64,000 bases of DNA from Syntrophaceae bacterium (GCA_009773315.1 WRPE01000022.1:3266-67265); one strand, 5' to 3'. Counted from the first letter of the stretch, positions 38,706-49,083 are shown. Notes: generated from the letters alone by a model not told the origin. Program-made: numbers and translations.

Positions 38706-38743
38706 GCTCACGGACTTATCAGACGGATCATTTAAAAAAGGAA

Positions 38744-41668
38744 ATGAACATGAAAAAGAAGAGTTTTTTGCACATGGTTTTAAGCTTGCTTGTGGTTGCC
38801 GTGATATTCGGCCTCGTGCCGGATGCCGCTTTTTCACAAGACAGAATGAGCGCAAGAAGGGGAAGTACGGCAATCCCTGCTGAAACGCCGGCTGTTTCCG
38901 CCCCCGTTACAGGTATCGACGCAGCATCTCCGGTCCAGGCAGCGCCGACTGCGGCGATTGTTCCCGGAGCAAAGGTTTGGTTTGGCGCAACCGTTCAACC
39001 CGTCACGGGAAAAGACATGCGGCTTATTAACATGCAATATGGAAGGTGGCCGGTTGTTTTTGTTTCAGCGTTGGCAAAAAACAGTCCGGCGGAACAAATG
39101 GGCATCCAGCTAAACGATATTATTCTTTCCGTCAATTACAAGGACATTAAATCGGCCAATGAGTTTCACGATGCCATTGCCGCTTTAAATCCCGGCGATA
39201 AAATAGTCTTATTGGTTGCACGTTCCGGTGAAAAGGCTCAATTTATGTCCGGAACGGTGGGGCCTCTTCCCGGCGGTACCCTAACAGTAACGGCCGCGAC
39301 GGCCCCCGCTGCGGCTGCGCCGGCGGTTTCCGACGCCGACATAGCGGCCAAGATTTTTGCGCCGACGGGGCCTCATAGAGTCCTGGCCGTAGGTGTATCC
39401 ACTGACGGTAAATATGTCATCTCGGGGGGAGATATGAAAAATTCTCTCAAGCTTTGGGATATTTCAACGGGCAAAGAGATCGGGACATTGATCGGACATA
39501 CGGAAAACAGGATCACCGCCGCAACCTTCTCCCCTGATGGGAAATATGCACTATCCGGGAGCTTCGATAAAACGGTCAGAATCTGGGACGTTTCAACGGG
39601 CAAAGAGATGAGAACATTGACGGGACATGCCGGATTGATTCTTTCCGTGGCTTTTTCTCCTGACGGAAGGTATGCAGCGTCAGGCAGCAGGGATAATACG
39701 CTCAAGATATGGGATGTTGCCACAGGCAAAGAGGTCCACACGCTTTCCGGACACGGGGATGGAGTCAGTACCGTTGTCTTTTCTTCGGACAGCCGATACG
39801 TCCTCTCGGGAAGCTTCGATAAAACCGTCAAGCTCTGGGACAGCGCTACAGGCAAAGAGATCAGGACATTGACGGGACATGCCTATCAGGTTGCTTCTGT
39901 AGCGTTTTTCCCTGATGGGAAACATGTTATTTCACGCAGCGGAGATAGAATCATTAAAGTATGGGATATATCCTCCGGCAGAGCGATAAGGACATTTTCC
40001 GCCGACACGCTCAATGCGGACGGCACTGCTAGCGGCAGTCAGGGGATCCGTACGGGAGCATTTTCGCCGGACGGGCAGTATATGCTGACGGCAAGAATTT
40101 TTGGCGGCCTTATCTCATTATGGGATGTGGCGACAGGCAGGGAAATCAGAAGATTCACGGGGCATTTGGGAGATGTTCCCACCCTGGCTTTTTCCCGTGA
40201 TGCAAAAAGTTTTATTTCCGGCGGCTATGACGGCACCATCAGATGTTGGGATATAGAAACGGGCAAAGAAATTGCCCGTTTCATCAGTTTAAAAGACGGA
40301 GAGTGGATCGTTTTGACCCCCGAGGGCTATTACAATGCATCCTTGAACGGCCACAAATATCTCAATATCAGCATGGGCAATAAGATTTATGGCATCGACC
40401 AGTTCTATGATGTCTTTTATCGTCCTGATATTGTTGCCGCAAAACTTCGAGGCGATGATATCAGTAGTCTGATCACGCTGACGATTGATGAAGCGCTCAA
40501 AAATCCGCCGCCGACAGTTGAATTTTCCTCCGTGCCGTCACAGACGGACCAGCCAAAGGTCAAGATATGCTATCAGGCAAAAAGCACAGGCGGCGGCATC
40601 GGCGAGGTGCGTTTATTTCACAACGGCAAACTTATCCAATCGGATGGTTATTACCGGGAAGTCGCCAAAACATCGACCGGCACAACGCAACTGGCTTCGC
40701 TAAACAGCCGGTCCATCTATGCCGACATGAGAAGCATCAACATTAAAGCCAAGACAGACGCTGCATTTATCGCCAGTCAGGCCAAAGGAGATCGCTTTGA
40801 AGACTGCAGGGAAATCGACGCGATTGCCGGTGAAAATGAGGTTTCCGTCTCCGCTTTCAATGCCGGCAACACCGTCCAGAGCTACATGAAAACCCTTAAA
40901 TTCAACTCCGGAATCAAATCGGAGGCCCCCCATCTCTATATTTTTTCCATCGGGATAGATCAGTACAAAGACAGCAGCATCAATCTCAAATATGCCGTTA
41001 AGGACGCCAGAGAACTGGAGGCAAAAATCAAAACCCAGTCCGCCACACTGTATCAGCCCCAAAACATTCATTATTCACTGGTGACGGACCAGGAGGCCAA
41101 TAAAACAAATATTATCAACAAAATCAATGCACTGGCCAATACCATCAAGCCCCAGGACAGCTTTATCCTCTTCGTGGCCGGTCACGGTGTGCTGTTGCAG
41201 AACCAGTATTACATGCTGACCCATGATTTCAACGGACAGGTTAATGATACCAATATGATCAGCTCCAACGAGATTGTCGAGATGTCCAAGAAAATAAGAT
41301 CTCTGAGCCAGTTATTGATCTTCGACACCTGCCATGCGGGTGGCGTGGACACGATCATCAGCGGTCTTTACGATGCCCGAATGTCTGTTCTGGCCAAGAA
41401 GATGGGCCTTCATATTTATGCCTCGGCCAATGACAAACAGGCGGCGATGGACGGCTACAAGGGCAACGGTCTCTTCACCTATACCCTGCTGGACGGTTTG
41501 AACAACAATAAGGAAGCCGACAAATATAAAGACGGGAAGGTCAGCATCGTGGGTTTGGGAGAGTATACAAGGAAAATGACCACGACGATATCCAAAGAAA
41601 TCGGACACAGCCAGACCCCGTTAATTATCAATTTCGGGAAAGACAGCCCGATCTATAAATTGCAGTGA
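38744..41668 (+). CDS. Secreted PDZ - 7-bladed WD40 propeller - beta-sandwich - caspase-like (peptidase C14) fusion protein
   Basis: Sec signal (LVPDAAFS-QD). PDZ-like segment (VVFVSALAKNSPAEQMGIQLNDIILSVNYKDIKS...PGDKIVLLVARSG). Seven WD repeats (SPDGKY..SGS.DKT..IWD). C14 dyad FVAGHG (His codon 41183-41185) and IFDTCHAGG (Cys codon 41330-41332). Confidence 0.8.
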   Translation: MNMKKKSFLHMVLSLLVVAVIFGLVPDAAFSQDRMSARRGSTAIPAETPAVSAPVTGIDAASPVQAAPTAAIVPGAKVWFGATVQPVTGKDMRLINMQYGRWPVVFVSALAKNSPAEQMGIQLNDIILSVNYKDIKSANEFHDAIAALNPGDKIVLLVARSGEKAQFMSGTVGPLPGGTLTVTAATAPAAAAPAVSDADIAAKIFAPTGPHRVLAVGVSTDGKYVISGGDMKNSLKLWDISTGKEIGTLIGHTENRITAATFSPDGKYALSGSFDKTVRIWDVSTGKEMRTLTGHAGLILSVAFSPDGRYAASGSRDNTLKIWDVATGKEVHTLSGHGDGVSTVVFSSDSRYVLSGSFDKTVKLWDSATGKEIRTLTGHAYQVASVAFFPDGKHVISRSGDRIIKVWDISSGRAIRTFSADTLNADGTASGSQGIRTGAFSPDGQYMLTARIFGGLISLWDVATGREIRRFTGHLGDVPTLAFSRDAKSFISGGYDGTIRCWDIETGKEIARFISLKDGEWIVLTPEGYYNASLNGHKYLNISMGNKIYGIDQFYDVFYRPDIVAAKLRGDDISSLITLTIDEALKNPPPTVEFSSVPSQTDQPKVKICYQAKSTGGGIGEVRLFHNGKLIQSDGYYREVAKTSTGTTQLASLNSRSIYADMRSINIKAKTDAAFIASQAKGDRFEDCREIDAIAGENEVSVSAFNAGNTVQSYMKTLKFNSGIKSEAPHLYIFSIGIDQYKDSSINLKYAVKDARELEAKIKTQSATLYQPQNIHYSLVTDQEANKTNIINKINALANTIKPQDSFILFVAGHGVLLQNQYYMLTHDFNGQVNDTNMISSNEIVEMSKKIRSLSQLLIFDTCHAGGVDTIISGLYDARMSVLAKKMGLHIYASANDKQAAMDGYKGNGLFTYTLLDGLNNNKEADKYKDGKVSIVGLGEYTRKMTTTISKEIGHSQTPLIINFGKDSPIYKLQ

Positions 41669-41812
41669 AAAGTAAAAACCCGTTGACAAACGGTTATACC
41701 ATCAAATTAGGAAGCCAAGGGGCGGAATTAAGTGTTGTGTCCCCGGAATTCACTCATAGGGTTTCTGATGGGACAACCTGCAGGGATTAATGCAGTAAAC
41801 AGAGGAGGGTTT

Positions 41813-44146
41813 ATGTCTGCTTATCGAAAAATATTGGTAGTGTTTTTGGCACTTATTCTTTCTTCATGTATGGCCAAGCCTGTTCTTACAGTGAAGGACG
41901 CTAATATGTCGCGGGAGATTAAACAAAAAGCGCCGATTGTGAGCAAAATTGATATCTCTCCGGATGGACGTTATGCATTAACAGGCAGCTTCGACTCATT
42001 TATTTTATGGGATATTCAACGGGGGAAAAAACTGGGAACTTTCATGCATAAGGGTTCTTTAGATCCGATCAATGTAGCTTTTTCGCCTGATGGAAAATAT
42101 TTTGCATCAGGGGGTAAAGGAACCAAACTCTGGAATTTCGCTACCGGCGAAGAAATCATGACTTTTGATGAAGAGGATGCCGCATCCGTTGTTTTTTCTC
42201 CGGATGGAAAGCACCTTTTATCCGGCGGCCCCAACCTCAATTTCAATCCGTTTGTTAAAGACAAAGAATCCCGGATGAAGATTTACCGCGTCTCGACAGG
42301 CGAACTGGTCCGTGACTTCAAGCTGAAAATTCCTCAACGGATCTACTCGGTGGCCTATTCGCCCGACGGCCGGCGGATTTTATCCGGCGACAGCGCCGGG
42401 CAGATGAAGCTTTGGGACATTGCCAGCGGACGGGAAGTCACCAGCGTCATGGCGACGCGCGGCTTCGTCAAGGTTGTCCGTTCCCTCGCCTTCTCGCCCG
42501 ACGGCCGGCATGCCGTGTCCGGTGGATCCGATAATCGCGTCATCATTTGGAATGCCACTGATTTAACCCCGATCAAGACGTTCGTCAGCCCGGACAGTTC
42601 CACCGGTCTTCTTTCCGGAATCCAATCGGTTGCATTCTCTCCCGACGGGAAATACGTTTTGTCGGGAAGAATGGATGGCAAGATCAATATATGGGATATC
42701 GCGTCGGGATCGGAATGGAAAAATCTCAGCGGGCATTCCTCCTGGGAGTACGGTACTTCGGCCAAATATTTTTCCGATGGCAGGCATGTGATATCCGCCG
42801 GAGATGCCTCCACAAGAATATGGGATGTCGCCGCCGGTGAAGAAGTTGCTTCAATGATTGCCTTTGAAGACGGTGAATGGATTGTAACTACAGCTAACGG
42901 TTATTACAACTCCTCTCCTAAAGGCGATCAGTATCTCAATGTAAAAGTCGGTGGCAAAGATTATACCATCGAGCAGCTGCGGGAAAGCTTTTACCGCCCC
43001 GATGTTGCTATGGCCGCTCTTTCCGGTGGGTCTTTGAAGGGTCTCAAAAACGTAGCGAATGTAAAACCGCCTCCTGATGTAGCGATAGTGGATACGCCCA
43101 AAAGCATTGATAAGAGCGACGCCGCCATCACCTTGAAAATTACCGATACCGGCGGAGGGATTGGCGATATTCGTCTTTATCTCAATGGCTCAGCAGTAAT
43201 GCTGGATAGCACCAGAGGCGTAAAGATTGTCACAGCTAATCAGAACGAAATATTTAAAACATATAAACTAAAACTTTCCAGTGGCCTAAACTCCATACGG
43301 GCTATTGCTTTTAATGCCGACAATACCATGCAAAGCTCAGGCGCTATTTATGAAATAACCGCATCATTTAAATCCACCGGCAAACCTTCTCTTTATGCTC
43401 TGGTCATCGGCATCAACGAATATAAGAACCCCAAGCTGCAACTTAACTATGCTGTTGCCGATGCCACACTCTTTGCCAATACCCTGAAGAAAGTCGCATC
43501 AGCTCTATTTGACAAGGTCGAAGTAAAAACTCTTTCTTCCACAGAAGAGACAACAAGAGAAAACATCTTAAAAGAACTGAAAGCCATGCAGTCTTTAAAT
43601 CCTGATGACTTGTTTGTCTTGTATGTAGCCAGCCACGGCACAGTTGATGATGGAGAATATTTTCTGATCACCTCCAATGTTGGATCAACACGAACAGAGA
43701 AACTAAAAACCGACGCCATTGGTCAAACAATATTCAAGGAACTTGTAGGCAATATCCCGGCCACAAAAAAGCTGATCATCATTGACACCTGCAATGCGGG
43801 AGCTTTAGGTGAGGCCATCCAGGTAGCGATGCTGACGCGCGGCATGAGCGAGGATACGGCAATGAAGATCCTGAGCCGGGCGGTAGGCTCAACCATTCTT
43901 TCGGCATCTACTTCTCTTCAGGAAGCGCTGGAAGGATATCAGGGTCATGGATTATTCACTTATGTCCTGACAGAAGGATTAAAAGGAAAAGCCGACAAGG
44001 GAAATACAGGTTATGTGAGGACAACCGAGCTTGCCGATTATGTGGATAATGAAGTGCCCATGCTTGCCGAAAAGATATTCAAGAAAGCCCAGTATCCCAC
44101 AATATCAATCAGCGGCCAGGCGTTCCCGATTGGGAAGGTGAGGTAG
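41813..44146 (+). CDS. Lipoprotein WD40 propeller - beta-sandwich - caspase-like (peptidase C14) fusion protein (paralog of the preceding gene)
   Basis: The start is trimmed to MSAYRKILVVFLALILSSC (lipobox), with a GGAGGG RBS. It has WD repeats. The linker GEWIVTTANGYYNSSPKGDQYLNV...FYRPDV is shared with the upstream protein. The dyad is YVASHG (His codon 43634-43636) and IIDTCNAGALG (Cys codon 43790-43792). Confidence 0.8.
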   Translation: MSAYRKILVVFLALILSSCMAKPVLTVKDANMSREIKQKAPIVSKIDISPDGRYALTGSFDSFILWDIQRGKKLGTFMHKGSLDPINVAFSPDGKYFASGGKGTKLWNFATGEEIMTFDEEDAASVVFSPDGKHLLSGGPNLNFNPFVKDKESRMKIYRVSTGELVRDFKLKIPQRIYSVAYSPDGRRILSGDSAGQMKLWDIASGREVTSVMATRGFVKVVRSLAFSPDGRHAVSGGSDNRVIIWNATDLTPIKTFVSPDSSTGLLSGIQSVAFSPDGKYVLSGRMDGKINIWDIASGSEWKNLSGHSSWEYGTSAKYFSDGRHVISAGDASTRIWDVAAGEEVASMIAFEDGEWIVTTANGYYNSSPKGDQYLNVKVGGKDYTIEQLRESFYRPDVAMAALSGGSLKGLKNVANVKPPPDVAIVDTPKSIDKSDAAITLKITDTGGGIGDIRLYLNGSAVMLDSTRGVKIVTANQNEIFKTYKLKLSSGLNSIRAIAFNADNTMQSSGAIYEITASFKSTGKPSLYALVIGINEYKNPKLQLNYAVADATLFANTLKKVASALFDKVEVKTLSSTEETTRENILKELKAMQSLNPDDLFVLYVASHGTVDDGEYFLITSNVGSTRTEKLKTDAIGQTIFKELVGNIPATKKLIIIDTCNAGALGEAIQVAMLTRGMSEDTAMKILSRAVGSTILSASTSLQEALEGYQGHGLFTYVLTEGLKGKADKGNTGYVRTTELADYVDNEVPMLAEKIFKKAQYPTISISGQAFPIGKVR

Positions 44147-44266
44147 AGGCGGGGAATGGGGTCAAATCTTTACGGCCTGTTGCCCAAATACCTTTTTTAC
44201 AACCTTTTTGGTACAGAACTTACATATCCGTGTATAGCGAACAATGATTCTTTGCCAAAACGGTAA

Positions 44267-44540
44267 ATAGAATACGATAAAGAAGAAAGAAATATTCTTG
44301 ATGCGTTAGAAAAGGGCAAGATGAAGCTTGCTACGCCATCAAAAAAAGAAATAGAATCGATTAAGGCAGCGGCAAATAACACACTTAAAAAAGACAAGCG
44401 TATAACGATTCGCCTGTATGACCATGACTTTGTTGGTATTCAAAAAAAAGCCATGGAGATGGGTATGACAATACCAAACGCTTATTTCCGGCATCATTCA
44501 CCGTTACATAGAAGGTGATATAAAAATAAAGACCGGATAA
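44267..44540 (+). pseudogene. Decayed RHH (CopG/BrnA-like, COG5304-type) antitoxin gene
   Basis: The frame reads (ATA)EYDKEERNILDALEKGKMKLATPSKKEIESIKAAANNTLKKDKRITIRLYDHDFVGIQKKAMEMGM. After a 1-nt shift near 44468-44472, the family-typical C-terminus YQTLISGIIHRYIEGDIKIKTG* continues in another frame. No ATG is present at the expected start; ATA follows an in-frame TAA. Confidence 0.55.
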
Positions 44541-44682
44541 CATCGCGCTTCACGGGATCTTTAGTGAAAACGGGGTCAAATCTTTAATCTTGTGATGTAC
44601 CAAGGGACGAATGTACCAGTAATTCTGAGGACATAACACTTAATTTATTGACTACTGCAAAAGAATACTTTAGACATCTTCC

Positions 44683-44800
44683 ATGTCTAGAATATCAAGA
44701 ATAGTTGCCGTAGATTATCCGCATCACCTTGCACAGCGCGGTGTTCGTTCCATAGATATCTTTCATGGCGACAACGACAGGAAGGTAGTGTCAAGAATCT
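44683..44800 (+). pseudogene. N-terminal fragment of an IS200/REP-associated tyrosine transposase (RAYT, COG1943-like)
   Basis: MSRISRIVAVDYPHHLAQRGVRSIDIFHGDNDRK matches the conserved N-terminus (R..R....PHH.TQRG......F..D.DR). The remainder of the 138-aa ORF has no family resemblance. Confidence 0.5.
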
Positions 44801-44927
44801 TTCGCACTTTTTATTTTAGTAATCCAACAATCCGGTTGTTGGTAAGCCAACCCTTAATCATCTTGACCAATGCAAGAAAAAGCTTTAAGCATTTTTCCAG
44901 AATATCAAGAATAAAAGGAGGAGAATT

Positions 44928-46586
44928 GTGTTTGAAAGGTTTTGGCATCGATATTACGATTACAACGTCCCCGCAACTATTCGTTATCCCCAGATTGCCG
45001 TCCCCGAACTGCTGCAGATTCCGGCGAATGCTTTGCCGGACAAGGCAGCCATCTACTATGAAGGGGCGGAGATCTCTTTCCGCGATTTTCGCGCCCTAGT
45101 GATCAGGATGGCCAATGCCTTGGCCGCTATAGGCGTGCAGAAGGGCGACCGGGTTGGGGTTCATCTGCCCAACTGCCCCCAGTATCTGATTGCCTATTAT
45201 GCGGCTCTTTCCCTGGGAGCGATTGTGGTGAATCTCAATCCAGCCTACCCGAAAGAAGAGCTTTCCATGATCGTGGAGAATACGGGCTTGAGCACGCTTG
45301 TTACCCTGAACGAAACCCAGCCGCTCATCCGGGAACTTTGCAGGGAAATCCCTATTGCCCGTGTCATTTTGACGAACCGCATGGAATATGCGAAGGAAAA
45401 GATTCCCGGCGTAACGGGTGACCTTGGCGCAGGATGGTATTCTTTTGCCGTCCTCCTGGAAAACTGTACTGATCTGCGGCGGCCCAGAGTTTCCGTCGAG
45501 GCGGAAGACCCTGCCGTCATTCAGTTTACCGGCGGCACAACAGGTATTCCCAAAGGGGCGGTTCTCACCCATGCCAATCTGGTAGCGGCAGTGTTCCAGA
45601 CATCGCCGCGAATGTTCCCGATTATGCAATTCATTCCCCCGGAAAGACGATCGTCGATGATTATCATTCCGCTTTATCATGTTTATGGGAACCTCATTGC
45701 CAACTGGTCGCTTTTCAACTGCGTAACTCAGATTCTGGTTCCCCGCTTTCAGGCGAATGAAGTCATTGATCTAATTATTAAAATAGGTGAAATTACTTAT
45801 TTCCCGGCTGTGCCGACCATGCTGACTGCTCTGGTCAATCATCCTCGGATTAAAGAGGCTGATCTGGGCAGGCGGATACACATTGTCAATTCAGGAGCCG
45901 CTCCCTGTCCGGTGGAATTGATTGAGCGGCTTCGGGATATGGGTGTATTTATTACAGAAGCCTGGGGAATGAGTGAATCGGCAGGCCTGGGGGTCGTAAA
46001 CCCCATCTTGGGAAAGAAAAAAACGGGCAGCATTGGCCTTCCCGCACCGGATAACGATATCCGTCTTGTTGACATTGTGGATGGTGTGACAGACGTTCCC
46101 CGGGGACAACCGGGTGAAATGCTTCTGAAGGGGCCCTCCGTGATGAAGGGGTATTGGAACAATCCCGAAGAAACGGCGGGGCAGCTTGTTGACGGCTGGC
46201 TCCATACGGGGGATATTGCCGTCCAGGATGAAGACGGTTTTCTTTTTATTGTAGATCGCAAAAAAGACATGATCATTGCCGGTGGGTTTAATATTTATCC
46301 CCGGGAAGTCGATGAAGTCATCTACCGGCATCCCAAAATCAAGGATGTTGTAACGGTTGGCGTACCCGACGCCTACCGGGGGGAAACGGTTAAGGCTTTT
46401 GTCGTAGCTAAAGACGGAGAGATCGTGACGGCGGAAGAGATTATCTCTTTTTGTAAAGAAAAAATGGCCCCTTACAAGGTGCCGAAAGAAATCGAATTCA
46501 GGACATCCCTTCCCCAGTCTGCTGCAGGGAAGATCCTCCGCAAAGTATTAAGAGATGAGGAAATCCAGAAAAAAGGTCAGACGTGA
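44928..46586 (+). CDS. Long-chain-fatty-acid--CoA ligase / AMP-dependent synthetase
   Basis: GTG start with an AAGGAGGAG RBS. AMP-binding motifs: FTGGTTGIPKGAVLTH, YHVYG, GWLHTGDIA, PKTAAGKILR-like (SAAGKILRK). Confidence 0.9.
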   Translation: MFERFWHRYYDYNVPATIRYPQIAVPELLQIPANALPDKAAIYYEGAEISFRDFRALVIRMANALAAIGVQKGDRVGVHLPNCPQYLIAYYAALSLGAIVVNLNPAYPKEELSMIVENTGLSTLVTLNETQPLIRELCREIPIARVILTNRMEYAKEKIPGVTGDLGAGWYSFAVLLENCTDLRRPRVSVEAEDPAVIQFTGGTTGIPKGAVLTHANLVAAVFQTSPRMFPIMQFIPPERRSSMIIIPLYHVYGNLIANWSLFNCVTQILVPRFQANEVIDLIIKIGEITYFPAVPTMLTALVNHPRIKEADLGRRIHIVNSGAAPCPVELIERLRDMGVFITEAWGMSESAGLGVVNPILGKKKTGSIGLPAPDNDIRLVDIVDGVTDVPRGQPGEMLLKGPSVMKGYWNNPEETAGQLVDGWLHTGDIAVQDEDGFLFIVDRKKDMIIAGGFNIYPREVDEVIYRHPKIKDVVTVGVPDAYRGETVKAFVVAKDGEIVTAEEIISFCKEKMAPYKVPKEIEFRTSLPQSAAGKILRKVLRDEEIQKKGQT

Positions 46587-47352: not shown

Positions 47353-49083
47353 ATGGAAATCAAACTGGCCAAAACAGCCGGGTTTTGCATGGGCGTGCGC
47401 CGGGCGGTGGATGCGGCTCTGGATGTTGTCCAACATGAAATGGGCAGGCGAATCTACACCTACGGCCCCCTGATCCATAATCCGCAAACCATTGAACTTC
47501 TTAAAAATCGAGGCATTACGGCCATCAACCATATTGAGGACATCCCGGACAAAAATCAGGCTGTTTTGATTATCCGGGCGCACGGTATTGCGCCTGACGA
47601 AAGAGAAAAAATCAAGGAAAGCGGCGTTAAAATCATTGATGCCACCTGTCCGAAAGTCAGCTACGTGCAGACCATCATCAAAAAGCACACGGCGATGCAC
47701 TACACGGTCATCATCGCCGGAGACCGCGAACACCCGGAAGTGGACGGTCTTTGGGGTTACAGCGAAGGCCAGGGCCTTATTGTCTCGACGCTTTCGGATG
47801 CGGATAAATTACCCGCCATGGAAAAAGTCTGTATTGTGGCCCAAACCACTCAGGACACGGATCATTACGCCCATATTGTTCAAAAAATCCAAGAAAAAAA
47901 TCCGCAGGCTGTCGTTTTCAATACGATCTGTTCCTCCACGGAGAGAAGGCAGGAGGAAATTATCACTCTGGCTGCGGAAATGGACGCTTTATTCGTCGTC
48001 GGCGGTAAAAACAGCGCTAATACCCGCCGGCTGGCTGATCTGGCCCAAAAACAAAACACGCCGACTTTCCATATTGAAACCGCTGAAGAAATAAAAAATA
48101 TAGATCTGACGCCTTACAAAAGTATCGGGGTTTCCGCCGGCGCCTCCACACCGAACTGGATTATCGATCAGGTTATGGATAATCTTGCGGAAAGACACAG
48201 CAGTCCACATCAAAAGGTTGGCTTTCTCCTCAAGCTTTGGCTATGGATGGTTAAAACGAATTTCTATTCCGCCTTGGGCGCGGGTTGTCTGGCGCTTACG
48301 GGCATGTTGTTGCAAAAAATCCCTGTCCATTTTTCGTCGATCGCCATCGCTTCATTATTTGTTTATGCCATGCACGTTCTCAATCGGCTGGCGGGCAGAA
48401 AACAATCGGGACTGATCGGTTCATTTCGTGAAAAATCCTATTTAAGGTTCAAAAGACACTATCATCTGACGGCTATTGTCTCTTTGGTGATGGCTCTGGT
48501 TTTATCGCTGGCGAACAGCATGCTTTCTTTTTTATTTTTGTTTTTCATTTCTCTTGCCGGCGGTTTGTATAATATGAAAATTCTGCCTGGAGGCCTGCGC
48601 TTTCAGAGATTAAAAGACATCCCCGGATCAAAAAACTTTTTTATCGCCGCCGCATGGGGAATGGTGACGGCGGTTTTACCGGCCTTGAACAATAGCCAAC
48701 AGGCCAGCGCCGGAATGGCGGTCGCTTTTATTTTCACGTTCGCCTTAGTCTTTATTCGATCAGCCATGTCGGATATTATGGATATCCAAAGCGACAAACT
48801 ATTGGGACGGGAAACCATTCCCGTAATGATCGGCAAGGAAAAAACTCAAGTCCTCTTAAAAATTATCATTCTGATTTTATTGATTGTTTTGTTGATCTCC
48901 ACTCCTGTCGGATGGAGTTCAACTTTAAGTATTTTCCTGGTTTTGTGTATATTATATATATGGATTTGTTTCCGGCTTTGTGATAGAAGGGCGGGTCTTT
49001 CGGGGGGAGTCATTGAAGGACTCCTGGAAACAAGCTATATTATTGCTGGTTTTGCTGTTTTCTGCTGGTTCGTTCTAAGTTGA
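47353..49083 (+). CDS. ispH: IspH (HMBPP reductase) fused to a C-terminal polytopic UbiA-prenyltransferase-like membrane domain
   Basis: Residues ~1-290 carry AKTAGFCMGVRRAV, ATCPKV, NTICSST (the three IspH cluster cysteines) and GGKNSANTRRL. Residues ~300-576 form ~8 TM helices with SDIMDIQSDKLLGRETIPVMIG (DxxDxxxD...G..T.P). It is one uninterrupted ORF. Confidence 0.75.
   Translation: MEIKLAKTAGFCMGVRRAVDAALDVVQHEMGRRIYTYGPLIHNPQTIELLKNRGITAINHIEDIPDKNQAVLIIRAHGIAPDEREKIKESGVKIIDATCPKVSYVQTIIKKHTAMHYTVIIAGDREHPEVDGLWGYSEGQGLIVSTLSDADKLPAMEKVCIVAQTTQDTDHYAHIVQKIQEKNPQAVVFNTICSSTERRQEEIITLAAEMDALFVVGGKNSANTRRLADLAQKQNTPTFHIETAEEIKNIDLTPYKSIGVSAGASTPNWIIDQVMDNLAERHSSPHQKVGFLLKLWLWMVKTNFYSALGAGCLALTGMLLQKIPVHFSSIAIASLFVYAMHVLNRLAGRKQSGLIGSFREKSYLRFKRHYHLTAIVSLVMALVLSLANSMLSFLFLFFISLAGGLYNMKILPGGLRFQRLKDIPGSKNFFIAAAWGMVTAVLPALNNSQQASAGMAVAFIFTFALVFIRSAMSDIMDIQSDKLLGRETIPVMIGKEKTQVLLKIIILILLIVLLISTPVGWSSTLSIFLVLCILYIWICFRLCDRRAGLSGGVIEGLLETSYIIAGFAVFCWFVLS

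Follow-up and report, generated by a model that had tools for sequence, protein, structure and literature searches.

A tandem pair of predicted exported WD40-caspase proteins in a Syntrophaceae bacterium and the modular family to which they belong

We analyzed a 64,000-nt stretch from a Syntrophaceae bacterium (GCA_009773315.1 WRPE01000022.1:3266-67265; hereafter the window, with positions counted from its first letter), in which two adjoining open reading frames (ORFs) lie on the + strand at positions 38744–41668 (974 aa, protein P1) and 41732–44146 (enclosing the gene of protein P2). We propose that P1 and P2 are active extracytoplasmic, metacaspase-like endopeptidases (clan CD, family C14) that carry out ligand-targeted proteolysis within the envelope of the cell, their role lying in conflict or surface remodelling, and we estimate the probability of this reading at roughly 0.6. 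Its molecular part, namely that both proteins are predicted Arg/Lys endopeptidases acting outside the cytoplasm, appears fairly probable, and its conflict part is doubtful. To our knowledge, nearly all work on bacterial caspase homologues has concerned cytoplasmic death or anti-phage systems (gasdermin, Craspase, STAND and EACC1). The present proteins point to a large unstudied branch built for use outside the cytoplasm, found in syntrophs, Nitrospirota and iron oxidisers or reducers, and following a modular logic in which an invariant protease cassette is combined with exchangeable propeller sensors and sometimes with PDZ and thioredoxin domains. If active, these proteins would form a new class of targeted envelope proteases, the substrates and triggers of which could reveal unrecognized envelope biology or extracellular caspase signalling.

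Architecture, fold and predicted specificity of P1 and P2

The P1 gene (38744–41668, +), delimited by its ORF, Pfam matches and orthologues, encodes an exported-type protein with the order PDZ, WD40, neck, sandwich and caspase. Its start is possibly the second ATG at 38750 (972 aa), as called on an identical Logan contig, and the signal peptide is unchanged by the choice between the two. This predicted Sec-type signal peptide (aa 1–31, 38744–38836) has a KKK n-region, the hydrophobic core MVLSLLVVAVIF and a predicted cleavage site between AFS and QD. It is followed by an HtrA/DegS-like PDZ domain (aa ~79–166, 38978–39241; Pfam PDZ_2 4.7e-11, PDZ_6 4.8e-11), an Ala/Pro-rich flexible linker (aa 167–205) and a seven-bladed WD40 β-propeller (aa 206–515, 39359–40288; Pfam WD40 5e-67), which is the variable module and would serve in recognition. 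The neck (GEWIV..TPEGYYN..FYRPD, aa 516–590) and an Ig/Fn3-like β-sandwich (aa 591–735), both delimited with AlphaFold2 and Foldseek, occupy positions 40289–40948; the sandwich includes a disordered insert of ~40 aa particular to subfamily A, to which the C-terminal module of P1 belongs. The caspase-fold (C14) domain covers 40949–41665 (Pfam PF00656 2e-16, with Foldseek and profile matches) and carries His814 (codon 41183–41185), Cys863 (codon 41330–41332) and an Asp two residues before the Cys (DTC).

The P2 gene (41813–44146, +) encodes a lipoprotein of 777 aa with the order WD40, neck, sandwich and caspase, without a PDZ domain, and its C-terminal module represents subfamily B. We assigned its start to ATG 41813 because a GGAGG ribosome-binding site lies 5 nt upstream; GTG 41732, which would give a protein of 804 aa, was rejected, as this upstream extension has no ribosome-binding site. 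The predicted lipoprotein signal peptide (41813–41869) leads to the lipobox L-S-S-C19, with Met and not Asp as the +2 residue. The seven-bladed WD40 propeller (aa 20–352, 41870–42868; Pfam WD40 3e-39) reached template modelling (TM) scores of 0.87–0.90 against seven-bladed WD40 structures in Foldseek, and the neck (aa 353–~420) and Ig/Fn3-like sandwich (aa ~421–525), together at 42869–43387, were recognized from strands and helices in the AlphaFold2 model at a predicted local distance difference test (pLDDT) score of 84–95. The caspase-fold domain (43388–44143; Pfam PF00656 ~1e-19) contains His608 (codon 43634–43636) and Cys660 (codon 43790–43792). The PDZ, WD40 and C14 matches of the two proteins all lie well beyond the curated Pfam thresholds. 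The P1 and P2 sequences can be aligned from the beginning of the propeller as far as the C-terminal residue (31% identity, E = 2e-121), and this identity over their full shared length marks them as old paralogues, not the product of a recent duplication.

The first-pass annotation of this stretch had described two adjacent paralogous genes of one architecture, the second of ~777 aa, and most of that description was borne out. The ORFs and the quoted motifs (GEWIV, FYRPD, GGGIG, AGHG/ASHG and DTCHAG/DTCNAG) were all recovered, and the coordinates given for both His and both Cys codons were exact. The extra PDZ domain of P1 was likewise found with Pfam, the Sec signal of P1 and lipobox of P2 by sequence rules and in dozens of homologues, the proposed β-sandwich in AlphaFold2 models with Foldseek matches to Fn3-like modules, and the C14/caspase fold both with the Pfam profile and with Foldseek on AlphaFold2 models. 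An RTX-like calcium site was entertained for GGGIGD but rejected, since this motif misfits the register of the GGxGxD nonapeptide.

Because full-length profile and Foldseek searches were swamped by WD40 proteins and single-sequence PDB searches with both C-terminal halves gave nothing meaningful, we modelled and searched a C-terminal-only alignment. The AlphaFold2 model of mature P2 (66 homologues) had a pLDDT of 87.2 and a predicted TM score (pTM) of 0.80, and that of the C-terminal half of P1 a pLDDT of 76.8 and a pTM of 0.80. In these models the neck is a small α/β element after blade 7 that bears GEWIV..T..GYYN.S and FYRPD, and the sandwich consists of seven to eight β-strands between the neck and the caspase domain. 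Neither neck nor sandwich had a Pfam match in either protein; the sandwich resembles Fn3/Ig-like modules (Foldseek, 3pdd, 4.7e-5). Across the neck and sandwich, R-P-D and G were invariant in the 49-sequence C-terminal alignment, and G, S, F and P in the 66-sequence P2 alignment. Since these two segments lack a Pfam model, the constant 450-aa module offers a ready handle for annotating the family.

The caspase domains scored 60.7 bits (P1) and 71.7 bits (P2) with Pfam Peptidase_C14 (cut-off 21.4), and the catalytic His (xHG) and Cys (DxCxxG) were invariant across the 66- and 49-sequence alignments. Foldseek placed them in the caspase-hemoglobinase fold, with matches to MALT1 (3.9e-10), GSU0716 (PDB 3BIJ, 5.5e-9), AtMC4 (8.9e-8) and caspase-8 (1.6e-4); Arabidopsis metacaspase 9 (AtMC9) was also among the neighbours of the P1 C-terminal model. 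A HMMER profile of the C-terminal module reached metacaspase-4 (6.6e-4), Yca1 and TbMCA2; it paired DTC with DSCHSG, and the invariant Asp of YAVxDA with that of GCxND in metacaspases. The S1 pocket of published metacaspase structures is lined by these two Asp residues, which make the enzyme cleave after Arg or Lys. Since both are kept, cleavage after Arg/Lys and not after Asp is predicted, that is, a basic residue at the position preceding the scissile bond for both P1 and P2.

The closest known proteins share parts of this design. Orthocaspases (C14B-like, e.g. MaOC1 of Microcystis aeruginosa) have the C14 fold, the His/Cys dyad, the Asp at Cys–2 and the second S1 Asp; however, in described WD40 orthocaspases the caspase domain is N-terminal, usually accompanied by NACHT, and cytoplasmic, whereas P1 and P2 have the order signal peptide, WD40, neck, Ig-like sandwich and caspase, are predicted to be exported and contain no NTPase. 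The MALT1 paracaspase, the best Foldseek match, is Arg-specific, regulated by an adjacent Ig domain and activated by dimerization, but its Ig3 follows the caspase domain and it is a cytosolic protein with death and Ig domains. GSU0716 of Geobacter sulfurreducens is an uncharacterized single-domain protein, and both it and MALT1 have only 15–17% sequence identity to the P1 and P2 caspase domains.

Gingipains (C25), clostripain (C11) and PmC11 are also exported caspase-hemoglobinase proteases of anaerobes with Arg/Lys specificity and an adjoining Ig-like domain. A nutritional or offensive function of their kind, in which foreign protein is degraded for peptides or attack, would be in keeping with an exported clan CD enzyme of predicted Arg/Lys specificity that has an Ig-like domain beside it as in gingipains, and with the many paralogues per genome. 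We nevertheless regard it as very improbable: rather than proteolytic specialists, the hosts are for the most part fatty-acid-oxidising syntrophs, Nitrospirota and bacteria that oxidise or reduce iron, the genes have no linked peptide transporter or secretion system, and a lipid tether combined with a WD40 sensor suggests selective rather than bulk proteolysis. Gingipains and clostripain, moreover, belong to different families (no C25 or C11 profile match was seen for P1 or P2), have no propeller, leave the cell by the type IX secretion system or other routes, and carry out bulk proteolysis for virulence or nutrition.

In P2 the catalytic Cys is followed by a conserved loop of low model confidence (LTRGMSEDTAMK..., aa ~675–706; pLDDT <50 over mature residues 656–687). 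By its position in the model this disordered loop corresponds to the p20–p10 linker, and we speculate that it might control activation as an autoprocessing or autoinhibitory element. Apart from Cys19, the predicted lipidation site, the only cysteine of mature P2 is the catalytic one; a single chain of 758 mature residues with a confident model and one cysteine left after lipidation is well suited to biochemistry.

Predicted export and comparison with cytoplasmic caspases

Signal peptides were called from sequence rules (n-h-c pattern, and a lipobox [LVI][ASTVI][GAS]C or an AxA-type signal peptidase I (SPI) site) and hydropathy. Both proteins conform to the Sec or lipoprotein rules, P1 with its KKK n-region, 12-residue hydrophobic core and AFS before Q, and P2 with LSS-C19; the hydrophobic cores score 2.97 and 3.2. 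The P2-type N-terminus MSxYRKILxVCFALFLSSC(T/A)ATP is common to at least 20 homologues, and homologues that seem to be without the lipobox begin at an internal Met just downstream and look like truncated gene calls. Relatives of 1000–1400 aa have an SPI-type signal in which AxA is followed by DKPEIFVQLGHS. The junction ...FS QDRMSAR is kept in P1 orthologues, which are present at loci L094, L096, L097 and L091 (loci are designated by L and a number). The fusion partners are also of periplasmic type, namely the HtrA-type PDZ domain in P1 and a PDZ domain with thioredoxin (WCAPC) in relatives. We infer from these features that P1 would be exported by Sec and freed into the periplasm after cleavage, and that P2 would be lipidated at Cys19 and tethered to the membrane, facing either the periplasm or the cell surface.

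If these signal peptides were mis-read, P1 and P2 might instead act within the cytoplasm in cell suicide or abortive infection, in the manner of Apaf-1/STAND, EACC1 or gasdermin-type caspases. The combination of WD40 and caspase does recall Apaf-1/caspase-9 and bacterial NACHT-WD40 metacaspases (PMC3501461), and weak matches to NCBIfam caspase_w_EACC1 and to the generic 'caspase' entry of PADLOC were obtained. However, the EACC1-associated caspase profile (NF047832) gave 56 and 70 bits, far under its cut-off of 140, with no NTPase or EACC1 gene in the neighbourhood. No Pfam match to NB-ARC or NACHT appeared when the non-WD40 segments were scanned separately or among the best 25 families of the full-length scans, and none was found among neighbours. 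No unassigned ORF of ~250 aa that could encode a gasdermin lies near the pair, for which PADLOC returned only the weak generic match. CHAT reached E = 0.047 and 13.6 bits (cut-off 24), and no cas genes occurred among the neighbours, where no explicit search for a CRISPR array was made. The first-pass annotation had likewise reported no NTPase, CHAT/CRISPR or gasdermin partner, and Pfam scans of both proteins together with the neighbouring genes agree. Signal peptides or lipoboxes are, in addition, conserved throughout the family, and the PDZ and thioredoxin fusions involve domains of a periplasmic kind. An account based on mis-read signals is thus exceedingly improbable, and a cytoplasmic Apaf-1/STAND-type role is effectively excluded.

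WD40 has been described as the commonest fusion partner of prokaryotic metacaspases (10.9%), and a 2012 paper already recorded multi-caspase operons among Deltaproteobacteria as well as N-terminal 'TM helices that may be signal peptides' (PMC3501461). The statement of the first-pass annotation that no function is established agrees with the literature, which holds only catalogues of this kind (e.g. PMC3501461); in full-text searches we found nothing on the exported architecture, its constant cassette, its modular evolution or any function. The WD40-caspase fusion as such is therefore already known and labelled in databases, and the exported architecture, the cassette and the modular evolution appear to be new.

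The constant module and its propellers

For P1 and P2 alike, searches with the C-terminal half matched hundreds of clusters at 90% identity. Their sources were Syntrophales, Desulfobacterales, Thermodesulfovibrionales, Nitrospirota and Nitrospinota, and wherever a name was given it was 'WD40 repeat protein' or 'caspase family protein'. When each species was represented by a single genome, 472 relatives were obtained, including members of Geobacteraceae, Gallionellaceae, Rhodocyclales, Leptospiraceae and Holophagaceae, and a HMMER search of 1.84 billion representatives of clusters at 50% identity gave 9,542 matches at E ≤ 1e-30. In the best 150 of these 9,542 matches (at least 470 bits), the neck-sandwich-caspase module of ~450 aa lay at the extreme C-terminus, after an N-terminal part of 330–1030 aa. 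The module is preceded by a signal peptide and one to three propellers, and it falls into two subfamilies with ~30% mutual identity: type A (P1-like), with a disordered sandwich insert of 30–40 aa, and type B (P2-like), in which the loop following the Cys is longer. Far from being a rarity, proteins with this module form a very large and widely distributed family, and the first-pass annotation needs correcting in this respect. The hosts are mostly anaerobes and microaerophiles, in which a periplasmic thiol protease would be able to stay reduced; the thioredoxin domain fused in relatives may also keep the catalytic Cys reduced.

Sequence identity among family members falls from the C-terminus to the N-terminus, from 79–97% in the caspase domain through 62–90% in neck and sandwich to 35–61% in WD40. 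For P1, the median identity to other members is 36% in WD40 and 79% in the caspase domain, and the caspase domain of P2 is up to 97% identical to those of its orthologues; the ratio of nonsynonymous to synonymous substitution rates (dN/dS) in the caspase domain is ~0.03–0.05. In a set of 37 non-redundant P2-type propellers, entropy was 1.99 bits in the loops of the top face (B-C and D-A) and 0.80 in the bottom loops (p = 5.5e-11), and blade 7 was almost invariant. Because this pattern is partly generic to WD40 repeats, the loop entropy is weak evidence of diversifying selection.

Combinations of modules were more telling. Depending on the genome, a P2-type propeller and lipoprotein signal are joined to type A or to type B modules (50–58% identity both ways). 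At L028, the caspase domain is 94% identical to that of P2 and the propeller only 38%. At L085, a P1-like PDZ domain, propeller and neck stand on a B-like caspase, beside a different propeller on an A-type caspase, which is the reverse of the arrangement in the window. Synonymous divergence (dS) also differs several-fold by segment within one gene pair, and in both directions: between P2 and its closest orthologues, dS ranges from 1.6 to saturated in WD40 and is 0.55–0.88 in the caspase domain, whereas between P1 and its L094 orthologue it is 0.10–0.17 in PDZ and WD40 and 0.34–0.46 in the C-terminal module. Judged by these comparisons, modules are exchanged between genes, and the evidence for exchange is stronger than that from loop variability. 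The conserved unit extends from blade 7 through neck and sandwich to the caspase domain. The conserved linker singled out by the first-pass annotation thus stands as far as the neck is concerned, but it is part of a larger unit that is exchanged between genes. In cyanobacterial orthocaspase-CLec proteins, a constant caspase-like domain is similarly fused to a variable binding domain, a C-terminal CLec domain diversified by a diversity-generating retroelement (DGR) (PMC7517822). These proteins differ from P1 and P2 in acting in intracellular signalling; in P1 and P2 it is the N-terminal propellers that vary, through divergence and the exchange of modules.

The number of paralogues also varied among 83 family loci. 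A single gene was present at 56/83 and two to five paralogues at 27/83, with combinations of types A and B at about ten of the 83. The tandem of P1 and P2 is accordingly one arrangement among many and no fixed pair, as most loci are single-gene and P1 orthologues in close relatives have no P2-like neighbour.

From these data, the following mechanism can be proposed for P1 and P2. Top-face loops of the propeller would pick a protein ligand or substrate, and in P1 the HtrA-like PDZ domain would additionally bind C-terminal or extended peptide tails. The rigid module from blade 7 through neck, sandwich and caspase would then present the His/Cys dyad for cleavage after Arg or Lys. The outcome might be ligand-targeted envelope proteolysis in conflict or surface remodelling rather than housekeeping. 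We favour a selective or conflict role because the genes are cargo of an accessory islet and the family forms paralogue arrays with a constant effector and variable, exchangeable sensors.

The housekeeping alternative is that P1 and P2 are quality-control or regulatory proteases of the envelope comparable to HtrA, DegS, Tsp or tricorn, with PDZ domain and propeller capturing misfolded or C-terminally exposed proteins. The combination of propeller, PDZ and protease is the design of the tricorn protease, and in tricorn, HtrA, DegS and Tsp a propeller, a PDZ domain or both gate or recruit substrates, the PDZ-proteases being periplasmic. The PDZ domain of P1 was indeed most similar to those of DegP, DegS, DegQ and MamE (partial NCBIfam matches to the PDZ region only), relatives add a periplasmic thioredoxin domain, and the predicted location is periplasmic or lipid-tethered. 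However, P1 is not a member of the HtrA/DegP family: the match is limited to aa 77–166 and reaches 20–48 bits against cut-offs above 400, and no trypsin-like domain precedes the PDZ. Tricorn, HtrA, DegS and Tsp are functional analogues only, with unrelated serine protease domains and encoded by housekeeping genes. Housekeeping proteases of this kind are normally single-copy, syntenic and evenly evolving, whereas P1 and P2 lie in a variable islet without conserved context, and their family shows arrays of two to five paralogues, module exchange and fast divergence of propellers, with PDZ in only a minority of members. We therefore consider quality control an unlikely function.

ORF clustering over the 83 loci identified recurrent neighbours, namely a DUF4384 secreted protein (13 loci), ankyrin proteins (11), small membrane proteins or lipoproteins (8–9) and generic histidine kinases. 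The most frequent non-caspase neighbour, the secreted DUF4384 protein of ~285 aa (Pfam 2.3e-22, with a weak FlgT_N-like N-terminus), is encoded at, for example, L002/L003 3316–6243, L023 1761–2627 and L085 10736–11587, and may be a substrate, inhibitor or partner of the exported caspases. DUF4384, ankyrin, small membrane or lipoprotein and Bmp-like proteins were sought in the window, and none was present.

Clan CD includes exported processing proteases and transpeptidases, and family members might accordingly act as endopeptidases or transpeptidases in the maturation or sorting of surface proteins, as do PorU of the gingipain family, legumain/GPI8 and the enzymes of prohormone processing, with the DUF4384 protein as candidate substrate or partner. 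The DUF4384 gene beside family members, L002 and L085 included, speaks for this possibility, as does the succession of propeller and Ig-like domain, which resembles the archaeal S-layer protein 1l0q. Such an enzyme should, however, be accompanied by a single substrate gene that varies along with it, and no gene of that kind is conserved: DUF4384 is missing from the window and from most loci. Exchangeable propellers also fit a single fixed substrate poorly. A maturation function is accordingly rather improbable.

A further possibility is that the family represents an extracytoplasmic counterpart of NLR/Apaf-type immunity. Like P1 and P2, the Apaf-1, STAND and EACC1 systems combine a WD40 sensor with a caspase effector, the sensor being variable and the effector constant. 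P1 and P2 differ in having no NB-ARC/NACHT, EACC1 or ATP switch, in their predicted extracytoplasmic location and in uniting sensor and protease in one chain. Arrays of paralogues would be stationed in the periplasm or at the cell surface, their exchangeable and rapidly evolving propellers being receptors for foreign proteins such as effectors of phages, predators or competitors. The ligand would switch on the constant caspase effector without an NTPase, possibly by dimerization, including A/B heterodimers encoded by tandem genes such as P1-P2, and cleavage would then be directed at the invader itself or at a target in the host envelope. We hold this scenario to be improbable. Searches of plasmids with the constant module found only distant relatives (≤33% identity), and searches of phages nothing meaningful; a plasmid- or phage-borne origin, which we also considered, is unsupported, with no close relatives on either.

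Several points weigh against P1 and P2 as ligand-targeted envelope proteases engaged in conflict or remodelling. The export signals are rule-based calls, the literature searches brought up no experiment on a member of the family, and none of the results points to a substrate. Variable top loops are expected in almost any WD40 family, as the A-B and C-D turns hold the repeat motifs; dS in the propeller is saturated, which makes its dN/dS untrustworthy, and the lower dS of the caspase domain could partly reflect codon or nucleotide constraint and not recombination. The DUF4384 neighbour, common elsewhere, is missing from the window, and the absence of close plasmid or phage relatives weakens the argument for mobility and conflict.

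Other members of the family extend the range of fusions. PDZ-bearing relatives mostly also carry thioredoxin, whereas P1 does not. These P1 relatives of ~1000 aa have the order Sec signal, PDZ, thioredoxin (WCAPC; Pfam ~2e-20), WD40, neck, sandwich and caspase, and join a periplasmic thiol-disulfide oxidoreductase domain to a cysteine protease; they are encoded at L018 14529–17558, L046 3516–6620, L057 10271–13309, L066 5128–8169 and L073 737–3736 (Pfam on the N-termini of L018 and L073, the other three by eye). A search of a set of 5.8 billion proteins with the PDZ region of P1 found only two relatives, one of them a frameshift fragment of a P1-like gene, and the PDZ-bearing orthologues of P1 were obtained instead from metagenome loci anchored on dxs. 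At L004 (518–10003), five caspase-family genes lie within 10 kb; one encodes a lipoprotein-ankyrin-repeat-caspase fusion of 452 aa (Ank 1e-21, Peptidase_C14 4.6e-18), an exported-type protease with another repeat sensor. L002 contains a TPR-PDZ-caspase gene, with a radical-SAM/SPASM gene and an ABC exporter upstream.

Context of the gene pair between dxs and tlyA

All genes within ~10 kb of the pair are housekeeping genes: carB, a dihydrolipoamide-dehydrogenase-like gene, xseA, ispA and dxs upstream, and an acyl-CoA ligase, tlyA, an IspH-UbiA fusion, a lipoprotein, tmk, holB, a PSP1-domain gene and metG downstream. No NTPase, gasdermin or CRISPR-linked gene was found in this interval. By anchoring on dxs in metagenome contigs, we inferred the ancestral order xseA-ispA-dxs-tlyA-ispH-lipoprotein-tmk, with a gap of 30–90 nt between dxs and tlyA in at least 25 relatives. 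In the window this gap is occupied by an accessory islet of 7.85 kb (38706–46554) that holds P1, P2, an antitoxin remnant, a transposase-like fragment and the acyl-CoA ligase, and across which the GC fraction drops from ~0.52–0.54 to 0.46–0.48. At the same junction elsewhere (L086–L165), the cargo amounts to 0.8–8 kb and includes a REP-associated tyrosine transposase (RAYT)-type gene at L108, lipoproteins at L087 and an acyl-CoA ligase with other genes at L095–L097. Because relatives hold different cargo there, the dxs-tlyA junction is an insertion hot spot.

The P1 orthologues near dxs at L094, L096, L097 and L091 have the same signal and a PDZ domain without thioredoxin, the one at L094 being 86–92% identical to P1, and no P2-like gene adjoins any of these four. 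No synteny of dxs and the ligase with caspase loci was found. A scan for promoters and terminators gave nothing above background, with no terminator between dxs and P1, and co-transcription of P1 with dxs is possible on the basis of this sequence.

Downstream of P2 lies a frameshifted, start-less remnant of a BrnA/CopG-like antitoxin gene (44267–44540, +), recognized by three-frame translation and a weak Pfam match below the cut-off (BrnA_antitoxin, 0.006). It is bracketed by 18-nt direct repeats, AA(T/C)GGGGTCAAATCTTTA, at 44155–44172 and 44569–44586, and no toxin partner is present. A relation to the antitoxin described with MaOC1 (PMC7935541) was considered and rejected as coincidence, since the remnant is a pseudogene, the proteases are of exported type and toxin-antitoxin genes are common in these islets.

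An ORF of 138 aa (44683–45099, +) starts with MSRISRIVAVDYPHHLAQRG..., like the N-terminus of REP-associated/IS200-like tyrosine transposases; the rest has no Pfam match and is probably part of a degraded fragment, an intact gene of this type being present at the same junction in L108. A second 18-nt direct repeat, TC(T/C)AGAATATCAAGAATA, occurs at 44686–44703 and 44896–44913, 210 nt apart, with its second copy just before the start of the ligase gene. The first ATG of the tlyA-like rRNA methyltransferase ORF (S4 and FtsJ) would place its start 32 nt inside the 3' end of the ligase gene (46555–46586); relatives begin tlyA further downstream at MEKIRLDKLL, and the true start is probably an internal ATG, the overlap being an artefact of ORF calling. 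Further downstream (47353–49083, +), an ORF of 576 aa combines IspH/LytB (Pfam 5.5e-91, aa 3–278) with a polytopic UbiA-family prenyltransferase (1.1e-15, aa 368–545), an unusual fusion that joins the last step of the methylerythritol phosphate (MEP) pathway to a membrane prenyltransferase and that follows tlyA, conserved at full length, in dozens of related contigs from metagenomes (tblastn).

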